DNA of 44,039 nucleotides from a phage: assembly GCA_030821775.1 (NCBI GenBank), contig GCA_030821775.1_4700.1; one strand, written 5' to 3'. Position numbers and translations under genes: made by a program. Of this stretch, positions 4,025 through 40,205 are shown piece by piece (position 1 is the first letter of the stretch; each line of letters begins with the position of its first letter). The notes below the pieces were generated by a model. It was not told the DNA's origin. It was given only the letters and a program-made list of their open reading frames with translations, and made no database searches.

Positions 4025-4537
4025 TTAGAACTTATGATTGTACACAGTGCCGAACGTTTCAAAACCTAAGCGGTTAAACATACGACCGACACGCTCTTCG
4101 TTGATACCGGAGGCGATAGACAGGCGAGCCTCAACACACGCCATAGACTCAGCCCACGCCTTGTACTCCTTGACTAAGCGCATACCCATTAATGAGCCTC
4201 GCTTCTCAGGAACCATATAGAATAGCATATCACTAGCCACAATAGCAGGGTTCCACGGAGCCATAGGGTGGGTCGCAGCCCACAGGAAGCCGACAACCTC
4301 TCCATCTTCCACTGCCACCCACAGAAACATATCGCTTCTTGTGAGTGACTGACAGAGGAAATGTGCGCTGGTTTCGGCATCCCATACGGCGCAATGATGA
4401 GCCACCTTCTTCACCTCTTCCTCAACATAACGATTCCCTAGGTTTATGATTGAGGGAATATCGAGAAAGGAGGCAGGACGAATCATGGATGCACCACGAA
4501 TTGTTGCCGAATGCAAGACAGGATATATCGCTTGCAT
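4025..4537 (-). CDS. GNAT-family N-acetyltransferase
   Basis: 170-aa ORF with an acetyl-CoA-binding-like motif (EKRGSLMGMRLV) and GNAT-like beta-strand pattern; start codon uncertain (no clear SD). Confidence 0.55.
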   Translation of the reverse strand: MQAIYPVLHSATIRGASMIRPASFLDIPSIINLGNRYVEEEVKKVAHHCAVWDAETSAHFLCQSLTRSDMFLWVAVEDGEVVGFLWAATHPMAPWNPAIVASDMLFYMVPEKRGSLMGMRLVKEYKAWAESMACVEARLSIASGINEERVGRMFNRLGFETFGTVYNHKF

Positions 4538-22290: not shown

Positions 22291-22620
22291 TTACTCTTCC
22301 TCTTCGTCTTCATACCAAACTACACTGCTATTATTTGGCACATCATTATAAAGCGCCTCATAAATGCGAGCCTGTAGAATCTTGGTTACGTCCTTAGTGT
22401 CAGAAATCAAGCCAGCATCCTCGAATTCGGTATCAATACCGTCGGCTGCCATCACAGTAAAGATTTCATGATAATAGTGAGGTACCTTGCCGTCTACAAC
22501 CTCATGCAGTGCATCAGAATAATCATCATCTTCACGGATACCATCGTATTGAATGCGTTCATTGAATGCTTCAACAGTTGCAGCCAGAAGTTCATAATAA
22601 GCGTTTGCATCACGTTTCAT
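22291..22620 (-). CDS. ocr: Ocr-like DNA-mimic anti-restriction protein (T7 gp0.3 homolog)
   Basis: 109-aa highly acidic ORF with GAGGA SD. The core ERIQYDGIREDDD...VPHYYHEIFTVMAADGIDTEFEDAGLISDTKDVTKILQARIYEAL aligns closely with T7 Ocr as I recall it; acidic C-terminal tail. Confidence 0.8.
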   Translation of the reverse strand: MKRDANAYYELLAATVEAFNERIQYDGIREDDDYSDALHEVVDGKVPHYYHEIFTVMAADGIDTEFEDAGLISDTKDVTKILQARIYEALYNDVPNNSSVVWYEDEEEE

Positions 22621-24601: not shown

Positions 24602-26314
24602 CTACTTTGCAACCCAACCTTGAGCAGATGTACCAGATTCTTTAATGTACAATGTACTACCACCAGACCCATTAATACCAGTTGCCAAAGAACCGACAGG
24701 TGCACCTACACCTAAAGTTGTAGGATTGCCATTTAGTCCATAAACAATCACCGTACTAGAACCGACTCCTTGGTTATTCTGAGGTGCTTGCGTACCATAG
24801 CAATCATTGCCAATTAGTTTAATATTGGAGCAAGAAGAAGTAACACAAATACCAAGGCTTGGCTTGTTAGGGCTTTCTCCATCTACTCCAATATTACCTT
24901 CTACTAGGATGTTGTTAGCTCCTGTGTCTATACTAATGAAGTGTCTACCTGCTTCAGCGGTAGATACTTCCTTCATATTATTAGCTTTAATCACTAGACC
25001 GCTAGCCTTGCAGTTTACATGAATACCATATTGCCCTAATTTAGAGAAGATATTACGACTAAGTATACCTTCTCCTGATAAACCAGTACCAATGAATGTA
25101 GTAGCATCAGACTCACCTAACCAAATCCCACTACCTCTTCCGTTTTCCCAAGTATTACCTTCGATGTGGTATTTTGTCCCAAAGCGTAAACCGATTAACC
25201 CTAAGCCACCAGAGCCTGTATTACCTTTTACAATTAAATTCTTACACCACCTTGCATCTACACCATAGGATACATCCCCTGTGAGGATCATAGTATTATT
25301 AGAAATTTCAATATGGTCATGCCAAATGTCACTAATATCGGTAAAAGGCCAAGATGGTGCATCAATTAGCACTGGTGCTCTTACGCCATCAAAAGTACAA
25401 CCTACAACACTACCTTGTCGAGTCCCTTGCGGTTTAGTTTGAGAGGAGACAGGTGTAACATGAACGCCTCTTGCATTAGAGTTTCTAAAGGTGCAACCAC
25501 GTACTGTCCAGTTTTTCCAGTTAAATACACGTACACCTGCAAAGAGAGCACCATCTGTAGTGCAATTCAAGATACGGATATTGTTGCCCTGTACACCATA
25601 AGCTGAGGCGTGATTTCCGATTAGTGCACCATAACCTCCAAACCCGGATTCTGGGTTTGGACCAGCATAGCAATTCTCCACCAGCATACCACTAGACTGC
25701 ACATAGTGACCAACTGTAATAAGTCCTGGGTCTAACTGTATAGCCTCTGAGAAGCTACGACTGCCTGTATTCTTAAACCCTAGGAATTTACAATCACGAA
25801 TAACTACGTTGTTCCAATCTGCTAAATCTATGGCGTGGTAGTCCACTACATTGTTAACTGTTATGCCTTCAAACTTCAAATCATTATTACTAGTAGATGC
25901 AAATACTACAAAAGGTGTATCCCCTTTAGTGTGACCATTGCCTTCATAGACACCTCCACTGACTGTTACATTACTAGCTTGCCTTTGTGATAATCTGAAT
26001 AGCGTATCTCCTGTTTCGTAGTCACGTACAAATGTTACACCTTTAGCAACCTTGAAGTGTGTATTAGCAAATATCTCAACAGTACCACTGAGTTTATATT
26101 CGCCAGCTTTAGTGACTGATACAGTACCACCGCCTAGCAATCTGACCGCATTGAATGCAGCTTGAAGGGCTTGCCTGTTGTCATTAGAAGAGGGATTAAC
26201 TCCAAAATCCGCAACATCTATTGTATCCGATAGTTTATCAGATAGCAGGCGCTCAATAGTACCTGTTAGTTTACTCTTGTACTTCACCAAGTAAGCACTT
26301 AATCTTTGAAGCAT
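24602..26314 (-). CDS. Tailspike 2: beta-helix polysaccharide depolymerase
   Basis: 570-aa ORF with AAGGAGG SD; N-terminal pectate-lyase-3-like motif (DVADFGVNP...), many Gly/Asn-rich repeat turns typical of right-handed parallel beta-helix tailspikes; terminal position as in SP6/K1-5. Confidence 0.7.
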   Translation of the reverse strand: MLQRLSAYLVKYKSKLTGTIERLLSDKLSDTIDVADFGVNPSSNDNRQALQAAFNAVRLLGGGTVSVTKAGEYKLSGTVEIFANTHFKVAKGVTFVRDYETGDTLFRLSQRQASNVTVSGGVYEGNGHTKGDTPFVVFASTSNNDLKFEGITVNNVVDYHAIDLADWNNVVIRDCKFLGFKNTGSRSFSEAIQLDPGLITVGHYVQSSGMLVENCYAGPNPESGFGGYGALIGNHASAYGVQGNNIRILNCTTDGALFAGVRVFNWKNWTVRGCTFRNSNARGVHVTPVSSQTKPQGTRQGSVVGCTFDGVRAPVLIDAPSWPFTDISDIWHDHIEISNNTMILTGDVSYGVDARWCKNLIVKGNTGSGGLGLIGLRFGTKYHIEGNTWENGRGSGIWLGESDATTFIGTGLSGEGILSRNIFSKLGQYGIHVNCKASGLVIKANNMKEVSTAEAGRHFISIDTGANNILVEGNIGVDGESPNKPSLGICVTSSCSNIKLIGNDCYGTQAPQNNQGVGSSTVIVYGLNGNPTTLGVGAPVGSLATGINGSGGSTLYIKESGTSAQGWVAK

Positions 26315-26399: not shown

Positions 26400-28298
26400 T
26401 TACTTAGGCAGGGAAGCTAGTGCTTCCTGCATACGCTTAATAGTCCGCCGCATCAACGCAGCCTCTAATATCAGTACTTCCTCGTAACGAATACCGTAGC
26501 GGGAACCTGCTGGTGTAATCAGTTTACGAGAGCCATTGGCATCTTCCTCGTATACATCATCCCAACTGTCGAAGCACAAGAAGCCATAGCGATGTGCATC
26601 TATACCGTGACGTTCGAAAGCCTCCTTAGCTCGCTGAGCGATGATGCCAAAGTGCCATCTAGCTGAGTCTACACCCTTCTCCTCAATTCGGTCCAAGTAC
26701 TGAAACTGCACAAAGTCAACTTCAGACCAAGCATCCAGTAAAGCATCTGAGATAATAAGAGGCTCTGTTTTATCCCTAGCATCTGAGACAACAGTGAATG
26801 CTGATTGAGTAAAACCGCCAGACCACACTCGATCGGCGGAACCTAATGCGTATGTACCAGTACTATTTGGGGTCATTGCATTAGCACCTAACTGCAAATA
26901 GCCTTCTCTACTGGTAGAAAGACGCACGTTACCGTTGGTGAGGGACACTGTCCGATAAGTACCATCAGAAGTAAATAGGCGAACTTGAGAAGAAGTACCC
27001 CCACCTACAGCTAATGACACAGCACCGTCCCCAAGCATTCTGTACTTATCAGCAGAAGTAAGAGCGCCAGAAGGGGGTGACATGGACTTAATCCGCCATT
27101 CGAACCTACCTGACATACTACCTATGTACTGCCCTAAGGCAGGTGCGTGCACTACGTTACTATTATTAGTGCCGTCAATAGTAGCTGCACCGGCAATAGT
27201 ACTAGCAGAACTGAGAAGGTCGTTTCTCCTGCCAGGGTGCTTTACCTCTACGAAGTTACGTGTAGAGCCGGATTCGAAAGTAATAACACCTGTAGCACTG
27301 TAGCTAGGAAATACAGACGCATAGTTGTTATTAGCTGTACCTATAAAGCGTGCAATTGTAGCAGTCTGCTTTTGTCCTAAAGAGTTAGTACCATCACATC
27401 CTGACATAAGCACATTATTTATGACGTTATCAGAACCCTCTACTGTAACACCATGAGCCTGCCCAGCATCAGAAGTTGAGTAATCTACGAGCACGTCTGA
27501 GATTAAGTTCGTACTTCCTTTGCCTGCAACAACCGCTGCATACTTAGGGTTATTAGCCATCACCCCCTTGATAAGGTTATTAGAAGGAGCTATTGGCCCT
27601 TCAGTGCCGTTGTAAGTTACATGCTGACAATCTGTCCCTATAACATTACTGACTATGTTGTAACTGGCTTTACCTTTCAACTCTACTGCTCCGAACTGAG
27701 GGTAGTTCTTAGCAATGACGTTATCTATGAGGGAGTTAACTGAGGAATCAGCAAGTACGCATCCGGCTGCCTTATTAGTAGCATAGCCGGAATAGCTACC
27801 TCGAATGCCTTTAATCATAAGTCCATCCGGTGGCGCACCATTAGGGTATGCGATTAAACTGAAACCAATACCTTTAACGTCTGAGAAGTTAACGTCACTT
27901 ACAGTAACATCACTTCCACCAGCAAGGGATACCTGCTGTCCCTGAGTTGTATCAGTCGCCTTATTACTTTCTACCGTAATATTACTTAAGCGACCTGCAC
28001 GTAGATTGTTAAATACTAGGTAGTTACCTGTACTTGAACGGTGACTTAGCACGCCACTACCCCTGCCGTCTAAGTTACAGTAATTACTATTAATACCAGA
28101 GCTAGAGAATACACCATCTGAGACTGTGACAGCTTTCTGAGAGTTTAATGAAGCAGCTATAACCTCCGTATCATCAGTAGTGGCGTCACCTGCAGCACCA
28201 AACGGCTTTGATGTTAAAACTCTCGCATCAAGGTACTCATACAAAGATTGTCCTTTATGCAAGATTCCTTCAGTATTAGGTTTGGTTAATTTAGCCAT
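26400..28298 (-). CDS. Tailspike 1: depolymerase with C-terminal intramolecular chaperone domain
   Basis: Track ORF 26400..28358 begins at TTG; the ATG at 28298 (MAKLTKP...) has an AGGAGA SD. N-terminal FGAAGDATTDDT motif, beta-helix repeats, and a C-terminal ~128-aa domain (SDARDK...GIIAQRAKEAF...) resembling the self-cleaving chaperone (peptidase S74) of endosialidase and K5 lyase tailspikes. Confidence 0.75.
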   Translation of the reverse strand: MAKLTKPNTEGILHKGQSLYEYLDARVLTSKPFGAAGDATTDDTEVIAASLNSQKAVTVSDGVFSSSGINSNYCNLDGRGSGVLSHRSSTGNYLVFNNLRAGRLSNITVESNKATDTTQGQQVSLAGGSDVTVSDVNFSDVKGIGFSLIAYPNGAPPDGLMIKGIRGSYSGYATNKAAGCVLADSSVNSLIDNVIAKNYPQFGAVELKGKASYNIVSNVIGTDCQHVTYNGTEGPIAPSNNLIKGVMANNPKYAAVVAGKGSTNLISDVLVDYSTSDAGQAHGVTVEGSDNVINNVLMSGCDGTNSLGQKQTATIARFIGTANNNYASVFPSYSATGVITFESGSTRNFVEVKHPGRRNDLLSSASTIAGAATIDGTNNSNVVHAPALGQYIGSMSGRFEWRIKSMSPPSGALTSADKYRMLGDGAVSLAVGGGTSSQVRLFTSDGTYRTVSLTNGNVRLSTSREGYLQLGANAMTPNSTGTYALGSADRVWSGGFTQSAFTVVSDARDKTEPLIISDALLDAWSEVDFVQFQYLDRIEEKGVDSARWHFGIIAQRAKEAFERHGIDAHRYGFLCFDSWDDVYEEDANGSRKLITPAGSRYGIRYEEVLILEAALMRRTIKRMQEALASLPK

Positions 28299-28382
28299 GC
28301 TATCTCCTATTACTTCCCAACCCTCCCCATGAAGATTGGCTAGTAATAGGCCGCTCAAAAGAACGGCACTATCTTATCTCTT

Positions 28383-28968: not shown

Positions 28969-29313
28969 TTACCACCTCGCTTTGTTAGAGCGCACATCGA
29001 TGTGTGTGAAGTTCGGGTAAGCACCAATGCCGTACTTGTCTGGGTACTTGTTGCATAGGTACTCTAGCACCTTGGTAGGTGATACACCTTTCACATTAAT
29101 GTCAGCAGCAATGCCAAGCAGATGCTTGGAGTCACGAGCGCCACCAACATTTGAGTTGTGTTTAGCACAGCGATGACCAGAGGTGATAACTACAGGCGCA
29201 TCAAAATGCTCACGCACATCTGTGACTACCTGTAATAACTCAGCATCAACAGTGGATGTACCGCACCCACAACGGCAAGCAAATTCTTTACGCTTGAAGT
29301 ATTTGTTAAGCAT
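28969..29313 (-). CDS. Endolysin, peptidase M15-type (L-alanyl-D-glutamate peptidase-like)
   Basis: Track ORF to 29367 starts at TTG; the ATG at 29313 has a GAGGG SD. Zn-binding pattern SGHRCAKHN...D...H typical of M15 endolysins; no signal peptide. Confidence 0.65.
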   Translation of the reverse strand: MLNKYFKRKEFACRCGCGTSTVDAELLQVVTDVREHFDAPVVITSGHRCAKHNSNVGGARDSKHLLGIAADINVKGVSPTKVLEYLCNKYPDKYGIGAYPNFTHIDVRSNKARW

Positions 29314-29315
29314 TA

Positions 29316-29600
29316 TTAGCCCTCTGCTGGAGTGACAGGTGACTCCACCATAGTAGTTGCATACCAAGGGTCAGTTGGTTCACTACCATGTGCAATAGCG
29401 ATGTACAAGGTGTTTGCTTTCTCTACAGCAACCATGGCACCTTTCTGCTTACCAGATAGGTGTTTAATGTTGATAGGATGATTTTTCTTCTGAAGGTCTT
29501 CTTCAGCAACAACAGGCATGGGGATTGCCGTTGCAATAGTTTGTACTGCCTTTACTCGAAAAGCCTGACCAGTAACAGAACCTGTACCATATGTAGCCAT
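29316..29600 (-). CDS. Small protein, paralog B of a tandem pair
   Basis: 94-aa ORF with GGAGG SD; shares the block SGKQKGAMV...IAIA with the adjacent ORF 29616..29891. Confidence 0.55.
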   Translation of the reverse strand: MATYGTGSVTGQAFRVKAVQTIATAIPMPVVAEEDLQKKNHPINIKHLSGKQKGAMVAVEKANTLYIAIAHGSEPTDPWYATTMVESPVTPAEG

Positions 29601-30031: not shown

Positions 30032-30049
30032 CTATAGTGTCCCCTAATT
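30032..30049 (-). promoter_or_regulatory. SP6-type phage promoter (variant) at the 3' end of the large terminase gene
   Basis: Plus CTATAGTGTCCCCTAATT overlapping the terminase stop codon. Confidence 0.6.
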
Positions 30050-31946
30050 ACCAAGTCCTTGATATTCTTGAAGAAAGAGTATTTCGAGACTTGACCTGCA
30101 TCGTGGGTGCATTTCCGTAGACACGGCGCTGCATTGCCACTGACGTATTCACCTGTTTTCGATAACCGTGGTCTTGTCCTGTGAAGAACTCACGGCGACG
30201 GCGAGGGTCATGCATCATCTCAAGATAATCGCGCATCTCCTGCGCTCTGAGGCGATTTATCCGGTTAACCTCGTCATAGTCTATCTGAGAAGTTAATTGC
30301 CGTATAGCGCCGTACAGTGCGTCTAAGCGGTCATCATGTCGCAGGCACCCTTTCTCCAGAGTGATGTTCGAGATTTGAGCAAACAGGCTGTAGCTCATCC
30401 GAACCTCCAGAGGGTAGTGCTGGATGCTGTCAATGTCCTGCTTGATCATCTCAGCGTTGAAGATGATGCGGTGCGCGGAGAACAGCGGTTCAAGCGTCTC
30501 GATGATACGAACCTCTTTCTGACCGTGTGCGTAGTCTTCTTTCAACTCGGCAGGCCACTCACGTTCGAAGTATGGCTTAATTACCGCCTCAAACGCACCG
30601 TGACCGAAGTTCTTCTCTATGAAGACCTCTTTTACCCCTGCGGCCTTAGCCTCGCGCACAATGCGACTGAGCGCGTTCTCGGAGTATCCGCCAGGCACAC
30701 CGAAGCATTTATAGACGTAGATGAACGTCCCCAACAGGAATACGATAGCCACGCCAGTTTCGTCGCCGTTCTTACCGCCACCAGCGGGGTCAATGTACAT
30801 GACGCGGCGCTGGATTGGTCGCCACTCATACGGGCGTGCAACCGGACGGTACAGGTAGTCTGTAGGCTTGTTACCGAAGCGCGGAGCGTCACCAATCAAG
30901 TTGAGAGTGTCGTTGCTCCAAGTCGGCATCTCTGGGACAACATCTGTACCAAAGCTCATGCAGATAAGCTGGTTCAGGCGCAGGGGGTAACGGTCTGCGT
31001 CCATCAGGCGCGTGTTCAGCATGAACTGTAGCTGGAACTTAGCAGTACCTTGTGAGATTTCCTTCTCAATCAGCTTCTCGTCATCGTACATTTCAGGGCA
31101 AGTTGGAGCGCCCTGAGTCCCGTCGATGCCATAACCTGAGCGCAGTGACGGGTCTTCCATCATATCTTGGCGAATCATCGGTGCGAGGAAGTCGCCGTAG
31201 CAAGCCTCCTGCTCTAACGTTGGATACCGTCCGGGCCAGATTCGAATCTGATAGCCACGCGCTGGTAAGTTGTTGTAGATGGAGTTCACGCTCTGAGGCG
31301 TACCAAGGTAGATGATGTCACCGAACTGGTTGATTGATTCAAACTCTTTGGTCAGGTCTTCCAGCAAGGCACGGCCTGCTGCGGTACGGCTGTTCTGCAA
31401 CGATTCAACGTCATCAGCCAAGATGATGTCTGCACGAGCACCCTGCATACCCGCCTCGATAGAGTAGCAGGCCACGGACGGAGACTTGTCACTACCACGT
31501 AATGTGTAGTGAATCTCAAAGCCTTTGATTGAAGCCTTGTCACCTGCGTAGATGTCAGGCAACATGAACTCCAAGAAGTCCAGACCACGGAAGATTTTGA
31601 TAACCCAGCCTGCGATTTCCTCTGCACGCTTGGCTGTCTGCGACACAATCATGATACGCTTGTGTGGTTCATGGATGATACGAAATACAGAGTAGATTGC
31701 AGCGATTGTGGTCTTAGCCTGTCCACGCTGTGCCTCTACCATTCGATATTTGTTCCCACTGAATAGGAACTTTAAGATATCCGCTTGTACCCGATTCAAA
31801 TCAGGGTTGCCAGTGATTAATGTATTGATTACAACCTGAGCGAATGACAGAAGTCCCTGCACGGTATACGGGAATGTTTGTTGTAACTCGTGCAGCAACT
31901 CCCAACGGGCAAGGGCTTCTGCCTGAGATTCCCTTGCTTTTGCCAT
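30048..31946 (-). CDS. Terminase large subunit
   Basis: 632-aa ORF with AAGGAGG SD; start overlaps the small-subunit stop (TAATG); ATPase and nuclease-sized domains; position as T7 gp19. Confidence 0.85.
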   Translation of the reverse strand: MAKARESQAEALARWELLHELQQTFPYTVQGLLSFAQVVINTLITGNPDLNRVQADILKFLFSGNKYRMVEAQRGQAKTTIAAIYSVFRIIHEPHKRIMIVSQTAKRAEEIAGWVIKIFRGLDFLEFMLPDIYAGDKASIKGFEIHYTLRGSDKSPSVACYSIEAGMQGARADIILADDVESLQNSRTAAGRALLEDLTKEFESINQFGDIIYLGTPQSVNSIYNNLPARGYQIRIWPGRYPTLEQEACYGDFLAPMIRQDMMEDPSLRSGYGIDGTQGAPTCPEMYDDEKLIEKEISQGTAKFQLQFMLNTRLMDADRYPLRLNQLICMSFGTDVVPEMPTWSNDTLNLIGDAPRFGNKPTDYLYRPVARPYEWRPIQRRVMYIDPAGGGKNGDETGVAIVFLLGTFIYVYKCFGVPGGYSENALSRIVREAKAAGVKEVFIEKNFGHGAFEAVIKPYFEREWPAELKEDYAHGQKEVRIIETLEPLFSAHRIIFNAEMIKQDIDSIQHYPLEVRMSYSLFAQISNITLEKGCLRHDDRLDALYGAIRQLTSQIDYDEVNRINRLRAQEMRDYLEMMHDPRRRREFFTGQDHGYRKQVNTSVAMQRRVYGNAPTMQVKSRNTLSSRISRTW

Positions 31947-32245
31947 TAAGCCTCCTTAGCGAAAGCGATAACCTTACCTTGTGAAGCCTGTTTCAACTGA
32001 GCCAGACGCTTAGACAGCTTGGATTCCTCCTGTTGTGCTGCTGGCGTAGCGGTGATGCCGTTATCCAGCACCCACTTACACATCGCACCAACATCCTTAC
32101 CGGACACTAGGCCGATTGTCGCATCAGGGTTATCTTCGATTGCATCTAAGATAGCCTGTGCTTTCTTGTTGAACATCTTCGTAATTGCATTGTGTAGAAT
32201 ACCTACATCATCTTCCGATGCAGCATGTCTGTTATGATTGCTCAC
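31946..32245 (-). CDS. Terminase small subunit (T7 gp18-like)
   Basis: 99-aa ORF, GTG start with GGAGG SD, immediately upstream of and coupled to the large subunit. Confidence 0.6.
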   Translation of the reverse strand: MSNHNRHAASEDDVGILHNAITKMFNKKAQAILDAIEDNPDATIGLVSGKDVGAMCKWVLDNGITATPAAQQEESKLSKRLAQLKQASQGKVIAFAKEA

Positions 32246-32423
32246 GTCTCTTCCTCCGTGCCTTAATCTTTCCCCACACCCAGTCGCAAATCTGTAACAT
32301 AGTCCAGATAGCAGTTAGAATGTAAACCCAGTTCTCCCAACTGACTCCAAGAAAGGTTGAGCTTGTCACTAAGACACTCGGAACCCACTTAAGGCCATCG
32401 GTGATTGCATCTGAGTTTACCAT
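32232..32423 (-). CDS. Holin (T7 gp17.5-like)
   Basis: Track ORF to 32483; the ATG at 32423 has an AAGGAGG SD and gives a 63-aa protein with hydrophobic segments and a highly basic C-terminus (KIKARRKRREQS); sits between tail fiber and small terminase as in T7. Confidence 0.55.
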   Translation of the reverse strand: MVNSDAITDGLKWVPSVLVTSSTFLGVSWENWVYILTAIWTMLQICDWVWGKIKARRKRREQS

Positions 32424-32433
32424 AGCAACCTCC

Positions 32434-33393
32434 TTATACCAGTTGAAGTTTAAACATGACAGTACATTCAGGTAACGGCTCATTGAATGTCACAGTAGAA
32501 CCATGAATCTCATACGCAGAGTCAGGCTGATACAGCCCATCAAGGTAAACATCAATGCGCTTGAATGCCGTAACAACATCAATTGACTGTGTACCTTCTC
32601 TGACCTGCTGGTGCATCAAGGTTGTATCACCAGCCGTAGGTGGAGTGAGGCGACTACCGATGAGTACATACAACTCATCTCCTGCTTGCAGAGGTTCTGA
32701 CAAGGAGATAACACCATGCCCAACGGATACAGCGCCAGCCAACTCGTGCTGAAAGACACCGTTGATGAAGACCATTGCATCTTTGAACTCATATGGAGGT
32801 TGGATGATTTGCTCTCCACCAGAGGCGACCATGTACCAAGGGACAGTTCGATGTGACACACCGGAGATCATGCCCTTCTTAAGACCTGCAATCTCTAGGT
32901 CTTGTGCCTTATTCCAATCTGTATGCTTTTTGTCTACAGAATCAAGCTGGCCTTTGTTCACAGCATCGGTTTCATTGATGCCAGCACCAAGGTTAGTGAT
33001 GCGATTCCCACCCATGTTAAGGTGGCTCTTTATGAAGTAACCATCTGGCAAGAAGCCATCAAGCAGTTCCTGAATAATCTCAAGTTGTTGTATGAAGTTG
33101 TTGTTCAAAGACTTCATATCCAGAACAACGTTACGGTCGAAGACAGCATACGGGTTGTCCTTCTCAACAATCCTGCGAATACGCATCTTACGACCACTTG
33201 CTGGGGCTACGTTAAAGGTAATCTGGTTGGTGCCAGACAACACCCAACCAGTTGCTTCAACCCAATCACTTCCATCCAACCACTCTACGTGAATGTCGGA
33301 AGCACGGATATAACCTTTATCATAGCCAGCGAAGCGGAAAGAGAACGTAGTCGTGCTACCATCACCAGTCACTTCGGTATAGGTATAACTCAT
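32434..33393 (-). CDS. Tail fiber / tailspike adaptor protein (T7 gp17 N-terminal domain-like)
   Basis: ~319-aa ORF; ATG at 33393 overlaps the upstream stop (ATGA); N-terminus resembles the tail-attachment domain of T7-like tail fibers; too short to carry its own receptor-binding domain. Confidence 0.7.
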   Translation of the reverse strand: MSYTYTEVTGDGSTTTFSFRFAGYDKGYIRASDIHVEWLDGSDWVEATGWVLSGTNQITFNVAPASGRKMRIRRIVEKDNPYAVFDRNVVLDMKSLNNNFIQQLEIIQELLDGFLPDGYFIKSHLNMGGNRITNLGAGINETDAVNKGQLDSVDKKHTDWNKAQDLEIAGLKKGMISGVSHRTVPWYMVASGGEQIIQPPYEFKDAMVFINGVFQHELAGAVSVGHGVISLSEPLQAGDELYVLIGSRLTPPTAGDTTLMHQQVREGTQSIDVVTAFKRIDVYLDGLYQPDSAYEIHGSTVTFNEPLPECTVMFKLQLV

Positions 33394-36300
33394 CAATCCT
33401 CCAATAGATCAACACTGGCTTTGGTCATCTGACCAATACCAATTGTGTTTGCCAGCGGAACCAGACGGCGCACCTTGTCTACCAGTTGGCGTGTAGATAC
33501 GTCATCGTCACCGTTAGCATACTTAACCAATGCCTTGGAAAAGTCCACGGCATCACCAATAACACCAGCGCCTGCTACGAGTTCACCAAAGCCTTGTTGC
33601 TGGAAGCCCATACGTCCCGGTGCTTGCATTAGCGCATCCGGCATTAAACCGAACGTAGCCAAGGTATCACCAGCTAGGCCGAAACCTGCAACTTGTGGTA
33701 GCTTGTTGAACACACCCATAGCAATATTGTTGGTGTCAAACTTCTCTTTCAGGAACTTGTCACGGTCCTCTCGACCAATCGCCTGCATCTGCATCTGTGT
33801 TGCATAGGAAGCGTAGCCAAGCAGCGAAGACCAAGCAAGGATTTGTGCCGCTTGAATCTTGTCACCACGTAAGTCATGAATGAGTTGCTTCTCGATAGAG
33901 ACAATGGAGAATGATTTGAACTGAGTAAGTGCTTTGCCCCACCATTTGTTCATCCAGATACCTTCGTCACCAATGAAGTTACGCTGGATTAACCTACCAG
34001 ACATACGGCGTACTGCGATGCCTACGGTTTCCCGAAGGTCTGGTTCCATCACATCGAAGTTCATCATACGAACCTTCTCGCCATTATATTCAGCATAAGC
34101 TGGGTTTTCGTCGAAGTGGCGCTGTAGGCGCTTCATGGTTGCTTCATTCAGGCCAATCTCATCCAAGTCAGCCTGCGGCAACTTACGTCCACCAGACAGG
34201 TGTTCTTTAAGACGCTTGTTGATTGAACGTGCCACAATCTTCTCGGAACCACCCTGAATTGCCTTGAAGCCAGATAGCCAAGTGTTCACGCGACTACCCA
34301 TCGCAAGCCCGTTGTCTACGATTTGTGACAGCTTATTGAGGTTGTCAGCAGTCTCACCGAACTCGTCATGGCGTGTGTTCCAACCTGTCAGCCAGTTGTC
34401 TTCGCCAATGTATCCTACTAACTCCTCCATCTCACGCAGTTCTGGCTCAAGCAGTTCGCCTTGTGCTGTACCTCCTTTACGACCAGCGCGTGACCTGAGG
34501 AACTTAGTGGCAGGGACAGACTTCAGCACCGTACCTACACCCATCTTGGTTATGGCTCGTGCAAGCTCTGGGATCTGAGCAAAGCCCATCTGTCCAAGCC
34601 GCAAGAGGCCAGTCACCTCACGGAGTCGGCGTGTGCCTCTGACAATGCCAGCGTTAGGGTCTGCGTCAATAGTGTTCCCGTACATTAGGCGAACAGAATC
34701 ACGTAGCATATCTGCCTCTGCACGTAGCTGTTTGATAGCCTTGGCATCTGAGCCAGCCATGTTGCGCCCAGCGCGTTCTGCTGCGTCGATTGCGTTGAAC
34801 ACGGACTGACGGGTAGGGAAGCCCATAGCCGCCAGTGCAGCGCCCCCTGCGGCCTCTTTGCCGTAGTTCTCAACCAGTGTCGCCACGTTGGTGTTCAGCA
34901 AGTCCTGTACTTTCATACCGCCGTACTCTGCCTGCGTATTGATGCCCATGCTGGCTTTAGCACGGTTCGATACAGACTCAGCCATCTCTGCCAACTCCGT
35001 ACCTTCAATAAAGTTGTCAATGATGGAGTCAGGGACACCAGCGGATTTCAGGTCAGCAATGAGTTGCGCCTGCTGCTGCTGTGAGATAACGCGGTCGAAG
35101 GCTACACGGCTAGACAAGGTAGAGTCGGAGGCACGGATATACTGGACTTTAGCGAGTGCATCTGCTGACTTCTTACCTAGCTTGTACTTGCCTGTCTGAT
35201 AACCTTTGGACAGCAAAGCAATCACTGCCTCGCTTGAGCCAAGACGGTTAACAGCCTCGGTGATTTTGATGCCGTCGTAGATAACTGGCATGTAGTCACG
35301 AGCCGACTGCACGTTCTCGAAGCCTGCTTCACCAGCCTGCTTGCGTATCTCAAGTGCTTTCTTCAACTTGTCAGCCATACCCTCGGCAGCCAACTTAACA
35401 CCCTTGGGAGTATCTTCTGGAATACCTTTGACAATTGCTGTGTAGACTTGGTTGTTGAAGTCACGAGTTACGGCAGGGTTAAGGTAATCAATGGCCCGTA
35501 AGTTATTGTCCTTGAGGAACTGAGAGAAGCCATCGTTGTAGCGGTTACGATCTGCTGTACGAATCAGGTTGTTATACACATCAGACAAGATTGAAGCTGT
35601 CTTCCCTTGATACGCACCACCTTGTGCATTCTCAAGCAGGCGTAAGCCAAGACCACGGAACACAGGGTTCTTCGAGTTAAGAATAACGGAAGACACAGAA
35701 CCAAGCCCAAAGGTAGATACAGGCTTAACGTCAGACTGATATGCCTCACGAGCCAAGTCATCCATCAGGTCTTCCATCTTATCAGAGAGGTAGAATTGCT
35801 CACCTTGAATCTCTGAGCCTTTAACACGGGCTGCTGACAGGGAATCATCAGGCGCTGCCTTGGCTTCCACCTCTGCCTGTGCAGCCTCGTCAAACTTCTG
35901 AGTCGGCGTCTTCTTAGCAGCCTGCTCTGCCTTGATAGCAGCAACTGCCTCCTTCACTGCACTGTGCATATCAACCTTACGTGACGGCACTTCCAGTCCA
36001 AGCTCTTTGATTTGCTGCTCACGCGTTAGGCTTGAGAATCTCTTAAGCTCTGCCTTGGCTGCTGGTACGTTCTCTACAGCTCTCAGCTTAGCCTGTAGTT
36101 CTTCCAAGCGACGAGTGGCATCAGCGATTGGCGCATCGAAACGACGAGCCAGTGCCTGCAATTCAACCTTAGTGTCTAATGCCTCTACCTTGTTACGCGC
36201 TGCACCTTTCTTGGCTGCATGTTCTGCCCGTGCTGCTGTACGAGTTTCCTGTAATGCAGCCAGTTCACTCTCGGCTTGTCTAATGTCAGCCTTGAGTCTT

Positions 36301-37193
36301 CCCTTCTCCTTGGCGCTCATACGGATATTGGCGTCACCTTTCAGCTTCTCTGTATGCTGGAAGATACCCATATCCAAGTCAACTTCACGAGCCATAAGCG
36401 GTTCATAGTTACGAGCAGCCATATACGCGTCATACTCCATCGCCTCACGGACGGCTTTAGATGCAGACACGTCGAACTCATCAGCACCACGAATGACAGT
36501 ATCAAGGTCATCTACGGTTGCACGAGGTGTGTCTGTGTCAACACCACGGACACGCTGGCGAGTAGCCATCCCAATAGTGCCACCCATCACCATGCCGAAC
36601 CCAGCGGCAGCTAGTACGTCATCAGCTCCACGCTGGTAGTCACCCTGAGCCAGAACTGCTTCAAGTGAAGCGTTCTCAGCACCAGCCAATGCAGCCGTCT
36701 TGATAACTCGTCCTAACCGACCAACCTTGAATGCACCAGCAACCGGAGCGGCAGCGAGTGAAGCCGCCCAGCCAACAGGGTCGAAGATACCAGCGGCAAG
36801 CTGTGCAGCGAATCCAGTAAAACCATTACGGGCAAGAATCTCGTTACGGTCCTTGTCTGCCTGAGCGTTAGACATACGGAACTGTAACTCTTCTGGAGAT
36901 TGTGCGCCTTTAACAATCTCTTGCGCTATCTCATAACCGTGGAGTTTTGACAAATCTTCTACGGTTGACTCTGGAACAGCGTAACCATCTTGTGGTGTGA
37001 ACTCAGCAGTGCTACGTTCATACGCACGTTGACCACCATAGAGCATCCATTCGTTCTCTAAGGCAGTTTGCATTACCTTATCCTTCGCTCGTTGTTCCTC
37101 CAACTTACGCTCGGCCTCGGCAATCTGAGAGAAGGTAGGAGGTAACTGCCTTTGAGTTACACCTACCCAGCTTTGGCTAGTCAAATCAGCCAT
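33393..37193 (-). CDS. Internal virion protein, large (T7 gp16-like ejection protein)
   Basis: 1266-aa ORF with AAGGAGG SD, last and largest of the internal virion protein trio. Confidence 0.8.
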   Translation of the reverse strand: MADLTSQSWVGVTQRQLPPTFSQIAEAERKLEEQRAKDKVMQTALENEWMLYGGQRAYERSTAEFTPQDGYAVPESTVEDLSKLHGYEIAQEIVKGAQSPEELQFRMSNAQADKDRNEILARNGFTGFAAQLAAGIFDPVGWAASLAAAPVAGAFKVGRLGRVIKTAALAGAENASLEAVLAQGDYQRGADDVLAAAGFGMVMGGTIGMATRQRVRGVDTDTPRATVDDLDTVIRGADEFDVSASKAVREAMEYDAYMAARNYEPLMAREVDLDMGIFQHTEKLKGDANIRMSAKEKGRLKADIRQAESELAALQETRTAARAEHAAKKGAARNKVEALDTKVELQALARRFDAPIADATRRLEELQAKLRAVENVPAAKAELKRFSSLTREQQIKELGLEVPSRKVDMHSAVKEAVAAIKAEQAAKKTPTQKFDEAAQAEVEAKAAPDDSLSAARVKGSEIQGEQFYLSDKMEDLMDDLAREAYQSDVKPVSTFGLGSVSSVILNSKNPVFRGLGLRLLENAQGGAYQGKTASILSDVYNNLIRTADRNRYNDGFSQFLKDNNLRAIDYLNPAVTRDFNNQVYTAIVKGIPEDTPKGVKLAAEGMADKLKKALEIRKQAGEAGFENVQSARDYMPVIYDGIKITEAVNRLGSSEAVIALLSKGYQTGKYKLGKKSADALAKVQYIRASDSTLSSRVAFDRVISQQQQAQLIADLKSAGVPDSIIDNFIEGTELAEMAESVSNRAKASMGINTQAEYGGMKVQDLLNTNVATLVENYGKEAAGGAALAAMGFPTRQSVFNAIDAAERAGRNMAGSDAKAIKQLRAEADMLRDSVRLMYGNTIDADPNAGIVRGTRRLREVTGLLRLGQMGFAQIPELARAITKMGVGTVLKSVPATKFLRSRAGRKGGTAQGELLEPELREMEELVGYIGEDNWLTGWNTRHDEFGETADNLNKLSQIVDNGLAMGSRVNTWLSGFKAIQGGSEKIVARSINKRLKEHLSGGRKLPQADLDEIGLNEATMKRLQRHFDENPAYAEYNGEKVRMMNFDVMEPDLRETVGIAVRRMSGRLIQRNFIGDEGIWMNKWWGKALTQFKSFSIVSIEKQLIHDLRGDKIQAAQILAWSSLLGYASYATQMQMQAIGREDRDKFLKEKFDTNNIAMGVFNKLPQVAGFGLAGDTLATFGLMPDALMQAPGRMGFQQQGFGELVAGAGVIGDAVDFSKALVKYANGDDDVSTRQLVDKVRRLVPLANTIGIGQMTKASVDLLED

Positions 37194-37259: not shown

Positions 37260-40205
37260 CTAATTGATCTTCACTCGCCCAATCTTAGTGTTTGCAGCGA
37301 GTTTGCCAGCGGCAGGCGGGTATACCTGCATCCAGCCGTTCTTGTCGATCTTGTTGAAATGAGACTTACTGACGAATGCCTCGGACATTTCACCAGCGAA
37401 CTTAACGTACATAGAGCCATCTGCACGAGTTTCTACTTCGCTAATCTTAGGAACAGCTCCACCACTCTGTGCTAGGTTGTAGGCTTCTGCACGACGAACC
37501 AATAGGCCAGTTTGACGCTTACCTTCGGAAGATGCAGTGGCTAGCATTTCAATAAACCCATCAGTAAACCGACCAGCCTTGAACGCTTCATATGCACGAG
37601 GTGACTTCTGGATGCCACCTCTACCAAGGTTGTAGCTTAAATCCATGATACCACGCTGTACACCGGGATGCATTTTGTCAAAAGGCACAGCCCAATCACG
37701 AGTAGAAGGTACATGGCTCTTCATGTCCTGCTTGAGAAGTTTCATAGCTCGCTCTGGTGTCAGTTGAGACTGACCAGCTTTGAACGGAACTTTCTCTGAA
37801 CCAATCATGATGTAGCCATTACGCTTCTCTTCGGCAGTCAGGAAGTGACCATATCCAACCGAATGACCATGTGCATCTTTGTACGGTGTGTACACGCCAG
37901 CAACTCGATCAAAGCCAACGTTCATCTGGTTCTCTGTCTTGGCTACATAGTCGAAGAATGTCTGGTTCTTCTTCTCGTAGCCGAACTCAAAGTTAGCAGG
38001 TAGGTTCTCACCAGCAGCAAAGGCAGGAGACATAAGGAAGTCAGCAATACCACGCTTGCCTACTGTCTTAGCAGTAACGTCACCTTTCTGCATAGGCTGC
38101 GCTTGGTAGCCACCAGCACCCCACATGCGCATCTGCTGTGCTTCAAAGTTCTTCTTAGCATCATCACGCTCTTTCACTTTAGCGTCGTAATGTTCCTTGA
38201 GCAACGCTTGTCCTTTAATTTCAGACAGTGGCATTGCTGGAGTGAGAGGCGTTCTGGCAGAACCCCCACGGATTGTGAACATACCACGCTTAGAATCAAC
38301 ATCAATGTAGATGTCAGATTCATCTAAACCTCCTGAATTATCAAGCAATTCCTGCTTGTGGTTATCGATGTACTGACGTAATGCTGTAGGTACATCATTC
38401 TGGTTTACACCTATAGTGTCACCTAAACCACGAGCATCACCTTTGACCAACACACCTTGAGTGAAGAAACCTTCGGAAAGCTGCGTATACTGAGATGTCA
38501 GATAGGATTGCAAGTGACGCTTGATGGTGTCATTGTTGTGACCTGCAATCTTCATCGCACGGGCGATAGTCATTGCATCATCCATCACAAGTGCTTTACC
38601 AGTGTCGCTCATGTTATCTCCAAGAGTTAACCAGCTACCACCAGCAATATCATCAACCACACCCTCAACATCACTGGACAATTCTTTGAGAACTGAGCCT
38701 TGCAACTTCTCACCTTTTGCAACGTTCTGAGCAAACTCAATCGCCTGACCCACGTTGTATCCCATCTGTAACGCCTTGTCGTAGTTCTCCACAAAGGCGT
38801 ACTCCTTGTCGCCCATCACTGCACGGCGGGAGTCTTCTGGAATAGAGTCACGCGCCATCATGATTGTCTTGAGCGCCTCCGGCTCTGCTGTCATATCCTT
38901 AAGGTTAGCAGAAGACATTTGCATCAGTGAGTCGTAACGAGCCTTGATGTTCGGGTCTTTGATGAGTTGCTGCCCCAGCTTGGCATATCGCATGATTTCG
39001 TACTTACCACGGATAGCCTCTGCCGCCTCTCCGGTTGCTCCGGTTCGTGCAATCTCATCGTTTGCCAGCTTGGTGAACACACCAGCGATACCTTCTGCAT
39101 AGTCGTTACGGTCTTTCTCACTAATGTCTTGCAAGCCAAGAGGTGAACCAGATTGACCGCGTGCAAGCAGGTCTTGCATCTTGGCTTCCTCTGCGTTCTT
39201 CTTAGCTACCTTGTCGAACAGTGATTTGATTTCACCGTCAGACCAAGCAGTGCCTCCAGAGATTTGGTTGTGATTCTGCATGATTTGCAGCATCTCTTCT
39301 CGGTCAAGCTCTCCAGCTTCGAATGCCTGAATCGCTGCATCCTTCTTCTCGAAGAGTGCAACCTGATTCTGAGCAGCCCAGTTACGGTTAGCTTGAATCT
39401 CGGCAGTCTGTAGCTTGCCATTCCGCTGGTACAGGGACACACCGTTCTTGTCTTTCAGAGACTTCGTTGCTTCAACAAAGGTGTCATCACCAACAGCAGC
39501 ACGCTCCATAGCAATCTGAGCAATCATCTCTTCATACTCAGGCTTGGTAAGCTGCATGGTGATAGCTTCCTGCTGTAGCTGGTGTAATGCGTCATCAAGA
39601 GCACCACCAGACAGACCTTCTGTAACCATCAGGACACGAGACTGCATAGCCTGTGTGCGCTCTTGTGCTTCACGTTCCAGCTTGGCGCTCATACGGGCAG
39701 CGAAGATTTTAGGTTGCTGCTCCATGAATGCGTTAGACACAGTACGCATGGTTTCTTTGTCCCCGATAAGTCCGGGGTACTGCTGGTATACTTTCTCCTG
39801 AATCTGGTTGCGGGAGTTAACAACCATTTGCTCCCACTCTTGGTCTGTGCCAGTGAAGCGCTTTGCTGCATCCTGTAATGCGATAGATTGTCCTATCACG
39901 TCGTTCTGCAACTGCACCAGCATATGTGCACGAGCGCCACCAACAGTGGCATCATCGGACGGCATCAGACCCTGCAAGGCTCGGTCATATTGACGAACCT
40001 TGTCATCCTCTACCGCCTGATTCATGATTTCCGTGCCTACCTTGGCGAATGCACCAGCGGCGCTAAACAGGTCATCAAGGAATGCGGAGCCTGTACGCTC
40101 CAGCACTGGCTCGCTTACCTGAATAGCGGAGGTGGAAGCACCACGCGGTGCTCCCTTAGATTGTACTTGCTGCAAGCCTTGCACTGCTTGCCGTTCAATT
40201 GCCAT
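37260..40205 (-). CDS. Internal virion protein with C-terminal T4-lysozyme-like domain (gp15-like position)
   Basis: 981-aa ORF with AAGGAG SD; C-terminal region contains YKDAHGHSVGYGHFLT, closely resembling the T4 lysozyme block YKDTEGYYTIGIGHLLT. Confidence 0.75.
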   Translation of the reverse strand: MAIERQAVQGLQQVQSKGAPRGASTSAIQVSEPVLERTGSAFLDDLFSAAGAFAKVGTEIMNQAVEDDKVRQYDRALQGLMPSDDATVGGARAHMLVQLQNDVIGQSIALQDAAKRFTGTDQEWEQMVVNSRNQIQEKVYQQYPGLIGDKETMRTVSNAFMEQQPKIFAARMSAKLEREAQERTQAMQSRVLMVTEGLSGGALDDALHQLQQEAITMQLTKPEYEEMIAQIAMERAAVGDDTFVEATKSLKDKNGVSLYQRNGKLQTAEIQANRNWAAQNQVALFEKKDAAIQAFEAGELDREEMLQIMQNHNQISGGTAWSDGEIKSLFDKVAKKNAEEAKMQDLLARGQSGSPLGLQDISEKDRNDYAEGIAGVFTKLANDEIARTGATGEAAEAIRGKYEIMRYAKLGQQLIKDPNIKARYDSLMQMSSANLKDMTAEPEALKTIMMARDSIPEDSRRAVMGDKEYAFVENYDKALQMGYNVGQAIEFAQNVAKGEKLQGSVLKELSSDVEGVVDDIAGGSWLTLGDNMSDTGKALVMDDAMTIARAMKIAGHNNDTIKRHLQSYLTSQYTQLSEGFFTQGVLVKGDARGLGDTIGVNQNDVPTALRQYIDNHKQELLDNSGGLDESDIYIDVDSKRGMFTIRGGSARTPLTPAMPLSEIKGQALLKEHYDAKVKERDDAKKNFEAQQMRMWGAGGYQAQPMQKGDVTAKTVGKRGIADFLMSPAFAAGENLPANFEFGYEKKNQTFFDYVAKTENQMNVGFDRVAGVYTPYKDAHGHSVGYGHFLTAEEKRNGYIMIGSEKVPFKAGQSQLTPERAMKLLKQDMKSHVPSTRDWAVPFDKMHPGVQRGIMDLSYNLGRGGIQKSPRAYEAFKAGRFTDGFIEMLATASSEGKRQTGLLVRRAEAYNLAQSGGAVPKISEVETRADGSMYVKFAGEMSEAFVSKSHFNKIDKNGWMQVYPPAAGKLAANTKIGRVKIN
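38412..38429 (-). promoter_or_regulatory. SP6-type promoter-like sequence inside the gp15-like gene
   Basis: Plus CTATAGTGTCACCTAAAC, one mismatch at the upstream end, within the coding sequence. Confidence 0.5.

Follow-up and report, generated by a model that had tools for sequence, protein, structure and literature searches.

How does a podovirus open the peptidoglycan layer during genome delivery when its gp16-like protein lacks the wall-cutting domain of T7 gp16? This question was raised by a stretch of phage DNA of 44,039 nucleotides (NCBI GenBank assembly GCA_030821775.1, contig GCA_030821775.1_4700.1), referred to below as the window. A first-pass annotation, made from the letters alone, had pointed to a lysozyme-like block in the gene at positions 37260-40205. 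The region is read here as a GH24 peptidoglycan-cleaving domain, its activity predicted, in the C-terminal part of the ejection protein at the gp15 position of an SP6-like podovirus. A probability of about 0.9 was assigned to this reading. Such a domain would explain how the phage breaches the murein layer in DNA delivery. The gene, the domain and its candidate active-site elements are as follows.

37260-40205, minus strand: gene for the internal virion protein at the gp15 position, 981 amino acids (open reading frame and translation).
37473-37958, minus strand: T4-lysozyme-type (GH24 / Phage_lysozyme) muramidase domain, residues 750-911 (PF00959, profile against PDB, hhalign, Foldseek).
37836-37883, minus strand: motif YKDAHGHSVGYGHFLT, residues 775-790 (translation; aligns with T4 lysozyme Y18-T34).
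37932-37934, minus strand: codon of E758, the putative catalytic glutamate and equivalent of T4 lysozyme E11 (conservation, predicted helix).

The 981-residue protein carries a T4-lysozyme-type GH24 domain. Pfam PF00959 (Phage_lysozyme) matched residues 772-907 at an expected value (E) of 8.6e-9. The score of 36.2 bits exceeds the curated threshold of 22.3 bits, and the match extended over profile positions 8-124 of 125. The same family was found in the orthologues at E 4e-10 to 9e-9. T4 lysozyme (T4L) itself was aligned with the protein by BLASTP at E 5e-5, over T4L residues 18-133. A family profile was made from nine members, with the final 240 residues of each. Searched against PDB, it retrieved T4L variants at E 1.5e-8 to 1e-6 over approximately 115 residues (T4L residues 17-136). 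Comparison by hhalign gave a probability of 91.7% (E 7.9e-7) against T4L and of 97.4% (E 9.9e-12) against P0005, an ordinary metagenomic GH24 protein. Homologue searches returned two proteins with the C-terminal 261 residues as query and five with the nine-sequence profile. The interval first proposed for the muramidase domain, 37500-37960, corresponds to residues 749-902 and fits the domain as now delimited. The block on which that proposal was based is present on the minus strand exactly as it was written.

Chance likeness of these 16 residues to T4 lysozyme would be compatible with the single-sequence phmmer search against PDB, which was weak (E 0.92; no match at E<=0.1 for a 246-residue fragment). 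It is refuted by the Pfam match above the gathering score, by the profile search against PDB and by the hhalign result with P0005, and was given no weight. Conservation of the protein within the family is highest in the lysozyme domain (mean pairwise identity 0.57, compared with 0.42-0.50 elsewhere), which fits a selected enzymatic function.

The motif YKDAHGHSVGYGHFLT had been placed close to the active-site region of T4 lysozyme, and the alignments agree with this. It is matched with T4L Y18-T34, including the D20 and T26 positions. In the BLASTP, phmmer and profile alignments D777 was aligned with D20, and S782 with T26 across a loop shorter by one residue. The Asp and Thr positions of the GH24 E-(8)-D-(5)-T signature are thereby occupied by D777 and S782. 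G786, H787 and T790 are invariant across the family, the S782 column contains S, T or N, and D777 is matched by D in six of the nine sequences. The candidate for the catalytic glutamate, E758, falls outside the motif. The pair E758-N759 is invariant in 9/9 sequences, down to 34% identity, and E758 is the sole invariant acidic residue upstream of the motif. The AlphaFold2 model has a helix over model residues 14-27, with E758 at its C-terminal end. Pairwise alignments were suggestive and inconsistent between members: FFDYVAKTEN of the window protein resembles T4L IFEMLRIDEG, and LAMDEN of the K1-5 orthologue resembles T4L LRIDEG. From conservation and the predicted helix, E758 is probably the catalytic residue.

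Several observations weigh against this account of the region. The helix with the presumed catalytic glutamate lies outside every significant alignment, all of which start at residues 772-775; hhalign against T4L and against P0005 begins just before Y775, at T773 and P774. A 10-residue insertion (QMNVGFDRVA) intervenes between E758 and the first strand, and for this reason no statistically supported alignment reaches E758. The D20 equivalent varies, since three of the nine members have T in that column, together with an acidic three-residue insert just upstream. The AlphaFold2 model of residues 735-981 was only moderate, with a mean predicted local distance difference test score (pLDDT) of 73, because the alignment behind it was shallow and held only six sequences; its N-lobe was poor (pLDDT 33-51). 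When this model was searched with Foldseek against PDB, the leading matches were all GH24 enzymes and the top 50 were dominated by GH24 endolysins and T4 lysozyme fusions, and the scores were weak (best E 0.028; template modelling score 0.43-0.45). On the carrier side, the N-terminal 740 residues showed no detectable similarity to T7 gp15 (BLASTP best E 0.89; hhalign probability 0.2%). The homology of the carrier to gp15 is positional, and the label "gp15-like" is reasonable in that sense.

The displaced glutamate helix, the variable D20 position and the low-confidence N-lobe would also be expected if the lysozyme fold had been kept in a catalytically degenerate state and served the ejectosome only as a module for structure or for docking to peptidoglycan. 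This is considered quite unlikely. E758-N759 are invariant in members down to 34% identity, the domain is the best conserved segment, and D777 and S782 are both kept in the window protein. Muralytic activity of the SP6 and K1-5 orthologues has been reported by zymogram (PMC5380687 and PMC8954989, citing Moak & Molineux 2004). The C-terminus of phiKMV gp36, which is more divergent, is an active lysozyme (PMC5380687).

An active GH24 domain could act by more than one chemistry. GH24-fold enzymes include the lysozyme of phage lambda, which is a transglycosylase. If the window domain worked like lambda R, it would leave 1,6-anhydro-MurNAc ends and would be chemically equivalent to the N-terminal part of T7 gp16; the reaction outcome is not settled by sequence, and the Asp position is variable in the family. 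This outcome is regarded as unlikely. By profile, the nearest relatives of known structure are variants of T4 lysozyme, the residues at the D20 and T26 positions are those expected of a hydrolase, and the long N-lobe insertion of the T4L type is present. In reviews the proteins of SP6 and K1-5 appear under the name "lysozyme" (PMC5380687). Hydrolysis is favoured over transglycosylation by the T4L-like D and S/T residues.

The carrier was identified mainly from its position. The open reading frame starts with ATG at 40205 and ends with a stop codon at 37260-37262, and an AAGGAG Shine-Dalgarno sequence lies 6 nucleotides 5' of the ATG. The protein matched phrog_4290 ("lysozyme domain-containing protein") over its full length at E=0; NCBIfam held no model matching it. 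The gene order on the minus strand is tube protein, nozzle, T7_gp14-family protein, the 981-residue protein, a gp16-like protein of 1266 residues and the tail-fibre adaptor. The parts of this locus that bear on the identity of the carrier are given below.

37959-40205, minus strand: N-terminal carrier region, residues 1-749, the presumed tunnel-forming part (gene position and literature, PMC8954989 and PMC4819975).
40215-40883, minus strand: gp14-like internal virion protein, 222 amino acids, the upstream neighbour (PF24072 T7_gp14, E 1.5e-37; phrog_805).
33393-37193, minus strand: gp16-like internal virion protein, 1266 amino acids, the downstream neighbour (phrog_342, E 2.8e-248).

No Pfam family matched the N-terminal carrier region above cut-off. 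Its only relation to phiKMV gp36 was a weak collinear hhalign match (E 0.0017, probability 15%). IVP-C proteins diverge fast and are recognised mainly through their flanking genes (Hardies et al., PMC4819975), and here a T7_gp14 family member lies upstream and a phrog_342 member downstream. As rapid divergence is typical of IVP-C, the carrier and T7 gp15 may share a common ancestor despite the failed match. SP6 gp36 and K1E gp35 are classed as gp15-like in Table 1 of PMC8954989. Orthology to SP6 gp36 (72% identity) and to the K1-5 protein (43%), the equivalent of K1E gp35, is supported by full-length collinear alignment. Two parts of the first-pass annotation were accordingly narrowed. Its "gp15-like" carrier stands by gene position and by orthology to the SP6 and K1-5 proteins, and not by sequence similarity to T7 gp15. 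Its "C-terminus" stands as the C-terminal part of the protein and not as its end, as residues 912-981 follow the domain. The GC profile showed no compositional break at the lysozyme domain, and there is therefore no sign of its recent acquisition.

In T7 the corresponding activity is on a different protein, as had been stated at the outset. In a positive control, SLT (PF01464) was found at residues 15-127 of T7 gp16 at E 1.7e-31. The gp16-like protein of the window gave no match to SLT or to any other Pfam family, and none at E<=10 in its first 250 residues. Its phrog_342 match begins at profile position 207, and BLASTP offsets to T7 gp16 were consistent with approximately 175 missing N-terminal residues. 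The proposal of a different enzyme on a different carrier was thus borne out: GH24 is on the protein at the gp15 position, and SLT is missing from the gp16-like protein. Orthologues of the latter in public records (L001, L002, L005, L007, L008) are annotated "internal virion protein with endolysin domain", which is the name of PHROG 342. The "endolysin domain" part of this label looks like annotation transfer from T7 gp16.

A lysozyme domain might instead belong to lysis, as an endolysin fused to, or mis-annotated in, a structural gene and acting from within late in the cycle. Some GenBank orthologues are labelled "putative soluble endolysin" or "putative endolysin", and PHROGs files the family under "lysis". 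Two further genes bear on this possibility.

32232-32483, minus strand: holin, T7-type (PF10746).
28969-29367, minus strand: Peptidase_M15_3 endolysin (E 3.6e-33; weak resemblance to the L,D-endopeptidase MepK).

The genome therefore has its own holin and its own muralytic endolysin gene, which speaks against the GH24 domain as the enzyme of lysis. The domain itself is inside a 981-residue structural protein, within the operon of internal virion proteins. The orthologues from SP6 and K1-5 have been counted among the virion-associated lysins (PMC5380687), and SP6 gp46 (Peptidase_M15_3) has been named the likely endolysin (PMC4837284). A role as lysis enzyme is very improbable on this evidence. 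The lysis genes of the window are not adjacent; the M15 endolysin gene lies approximately 3 kb from the holin gene, with terminase genes between them.

GenBank labels of orthologues of the 981-residue protein vary and include "baseplate hub", "baseplate hub subunit / lysozyme", "putative soluble endolysin", "putative endolysin", "internal virion protein B" and "hypothetical protein". Those naming a baseplate hub appear to be annotation transfer from T4 gp5 via the common lysozyme domain. The practical value of the present reading is annotation hygiene for these orthologues and for the gp16-like neighbour, and the flagging of an uncharacterised tail that is described below.

The novelty implied for the arrangement did not hold. 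The feature is already known, being documented for SP6, K1-5, K1E and phiKMV, and the domain in the window is a correct rediscovery. SP6 gp36 (NP_853596, 978 residues), K1-5 gp38 (982 residues) and K1E gp35 (982 residues per PMC8954989) are orthologues of the window protein. All three are of similar length and have a like position between gp14-like and gp16-like genes. PF00959 matched at the corresponding residues (SP6 770-905, K1-5 776-910), and the 70-residue tail that follows is common to the group. Identity within the domain rises to 82% for SP6 and 67% for K1-5. The difference of the window protein from these orthologues is ordinary sequence divergence only.

In Table 2 of PMC5380687, SP6 Gp36 (NP_853596, 107 kDa) and K1-5 Gp38 are given as virion-associated lysozymes, citing Moak & Molineux 2004, and SP6 Gp36 is described there as an internal head protein that contributes to the extensible tail. 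For K1E and K1-5, the lysozyme activity that T7 has on gp16 is stated to be on the gp15-like protein (PMC8954989). Similarity of the SP6 gp36 C-terminus to lysozymes is noted in PMC4837284, citing Dobbins 2004 and Scholl 2004. Cryo-electron microscopy of a phiKMV-like phage placed the lysozyme domain on its gp15-like tunnel protein (bioRxiv 10.64898/2026.05.18.726046, 2026). The same work surveyed Autographivirales genomes in which the domain is identifiable, and in 31 of 127 it was at the C-terminus of the gp15-like protein. Nothing new is added for the window by the domain, because descriptions of the SP6, K1-5 and K1E orthologues go back approximately twenty years and a survey of the layout has followed.

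More distant systems place the same kind of module differently. phiKMV gp36 (898 residues) and its orthologue Ar-KM gp42 are likewise internal virion proteins at the gp15 position with a lysozyme domain near the C-terminus, at residues 740-881 in Ar-KM gp42 (bioRxiv 10.64898/2026.05.18.726046). The motif YKDADGYSVGLGHYLG / YKDxxGxSVGxGH is common to phiKMV gp36 and the window protein (hhalign E 9e-5), and muralytic activity of phiKMV gp36C has been demonstrated (PMC5380687). phiKMV gp36 is very distant from the window protein. It gave no PF00959 match at E<=0.01, the T4L-type insertion is missing from its aligned stretch, and it has no 70-residue tail. The N-terminal SLT of T7 gp16 has a like inferred job, the local cleavage of murein by an ejected internal core protein, and sits at a similar height of the ejectosome according to the published model (bioRxiv 10.64898/2026.05.18.726046; PMC8954989). 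It differs in being of SLT/GH23 type rather than GH24, a transglycosylase rather than a presumed hydrolase, and in being on another carrier at the opposite terminus. T7 mutants in the gp16 transglycosylase are delayed in genome entry at low temperature. The T7 domain is required only where peptidoglycan is highly cross-linked (PMC8954989, citing Moak & Molineux 2000). The known mosaicism of podovirus ejection proteins is illustrated by these cases: T7-like phages carry the wall-cutting module on gp16, SP6-like and phiKMV-like phages on the protein at the gp15 position.

T4 lysozyme (gene e) is the closest solved structure by profile, and has in common with the window domain the YKD...G.GH..T motif as well as the long N-lobe insertion. 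Identity between the two is approximately 20%, and the window domain differs in that 10 residues are inserted after the Glu helix, before the first strand, and in having Ser for T26. The lysozyme domain of T4 gp5 is also a virion-borne entry enzyme (PMC5380687). The window domain sits in a podovirus internal core protein and not in a free endolysin (T4 gene e) or a baseplate hub (T4 gp5).

A role for the domain in DNA entry can be proposed from these comparisons. The identity of the domain, its gene context, the orthology to SP6 gp36, the absence of SLT from the gp16-like protein and the separate lysis cassette come from the present analysis. That the protein is in the virion, is ejected, cuts murein and has the stated place in the ejectosome is inferred from the orthologue literature and from T7 and phiKMV-like structures. 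Together with the gp14-like and gp16-like proteins, the 981-residue protein would be carried in the core of the capsid. All three would leave through the tail on adsorption, the 981-residue protein after gp14, and would assemble a trans-envelope channel. The 981-residue protein would form the periplasm-spanning part of this ejectosome, with the lysozyme domain facing outward. By cutting murein glycan strands locally, the domain would allow the channel and gp16 to reach the inner membrane and the DNA to enter. E758 would probably act as the general acid, with D777 and S782 at the positions of T4L D20 and T26. The GH24 domain would in this way take the role of the N-terminal SLT lytic transglycosylase of T7 gp16, and lysis at the end of the cycle would be left to the separate holin and M15 peptidase endolysin. 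The three ejection proteins' total length has been described as constrained to 2378 +/- 162 residues (bioRxiv 10.64898/2026.05.18.726046); those of the window sum to 222+981+1266 = 2469 residues, inside this range.

If the locus has anything new to teach, it is only in the stretch that follows the domain.

37263-37472, minus strand: tail at the C-terminal end, residues 912-981, conserved and predicted to form a small beta-rich module (AlphaFold2, conservation).

Four strands and a short helix were predicted for the tail, with pLDDT 76-90. It had no Pfam match at E<=10. Fold searches returned nothing besides an orthologue: BFVD gave the Erwinia-phage orthologue alone, and there was no match in PDB. 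By tblastn the tail was found solely at the end of orthologues of the gene for the 981-residue protein, in 152 phage records. An exhaustive HMMER search with the tail against 1.84 billion representatives gave four credible relatives alone, proteins of 963-987 residues in which the match is C-terminal. Judged by these searches, the tail is confined to SP6/K1-5-type phages and is without a recognisable fold or family. Tentatively, it may be a distinct module, either for docking to peptidoglycan or gp16 or as a latch that silences the enzyme in the capsid, and together with the 10-residue insertion it may define a regulated subtype of virion lysozyme; this suggestion is held as doubtful. Four further HMMER matches of the tail, in long repetitive proteins (P0007, P0011, P0012, P0013), were rejected as repeat or low-complexity artefacts. 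That in P0011 fell in VFPPAAGKITVSEINKN repeats, and the others in Ig-like, CarboxypepD_reg and DUF5977 repeat arrays.

The remainder of the window was surveyed for context. It is a complete SP6-like genome in reverse-strand, circularly permuted form, and contains RNA polymerase, Ocr-like, portal, two tailspike, terminase, holin and Peptidase_M15_3 endolysin genes. The gene for the 981-residue protein is 95% identical in nucleotide sequence to those of Salmonella phages PST_H2 and vB_SalP_SE29, which are nearer to the window than SP6 is. vB_SalP_SE29 is classified in Autographiviridae, Molineuxvirinae, Zindervirus. By its sequence relationships the window is assigned to Zindervirus, as an SP6-like Salmonella phage.

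Five other genes on the minus strand were noted.

22291-22620, minus strand: open reading frame of 109 amino acids, DNA-mimic Ocr family (PF08684, E 1.5e-30).
24602-26314, minus strand: tailspike-like gene, right-handed beta-helix protein of 570 amino acids.
26400-28358, minus strand: tailspike-like gene, protein of 652 amino acids with a C-terminal Peptidase_S74 intramolecular chaperone domain.
30048-31946, minus strand: large terminase gene, intact, 632 amino acids.
4025-4537, minus strand: GNAT-family acetyltransferase open reading frame, 170 amino acids.

The Ocr-family open reading frame is presumably an anti-restriction early gene beside the RNA polymerase region. The two tailspike-like genes fit the dual-tailspike adaptor system of SP6/K1-5-type phages. 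The annotation of vB_SalP_SE29 (L001 43-2687) gives its large terminase in two pieces, with a "hypothetical protein" open reading frame between them. This suggests that an element, possibly intein-like or a homing endonuclease, has been inserted in that relative. The acetyltransferase open reading frame lies just upstream of the head genes, and an acetyltransferase is annotated there in SE29 too.

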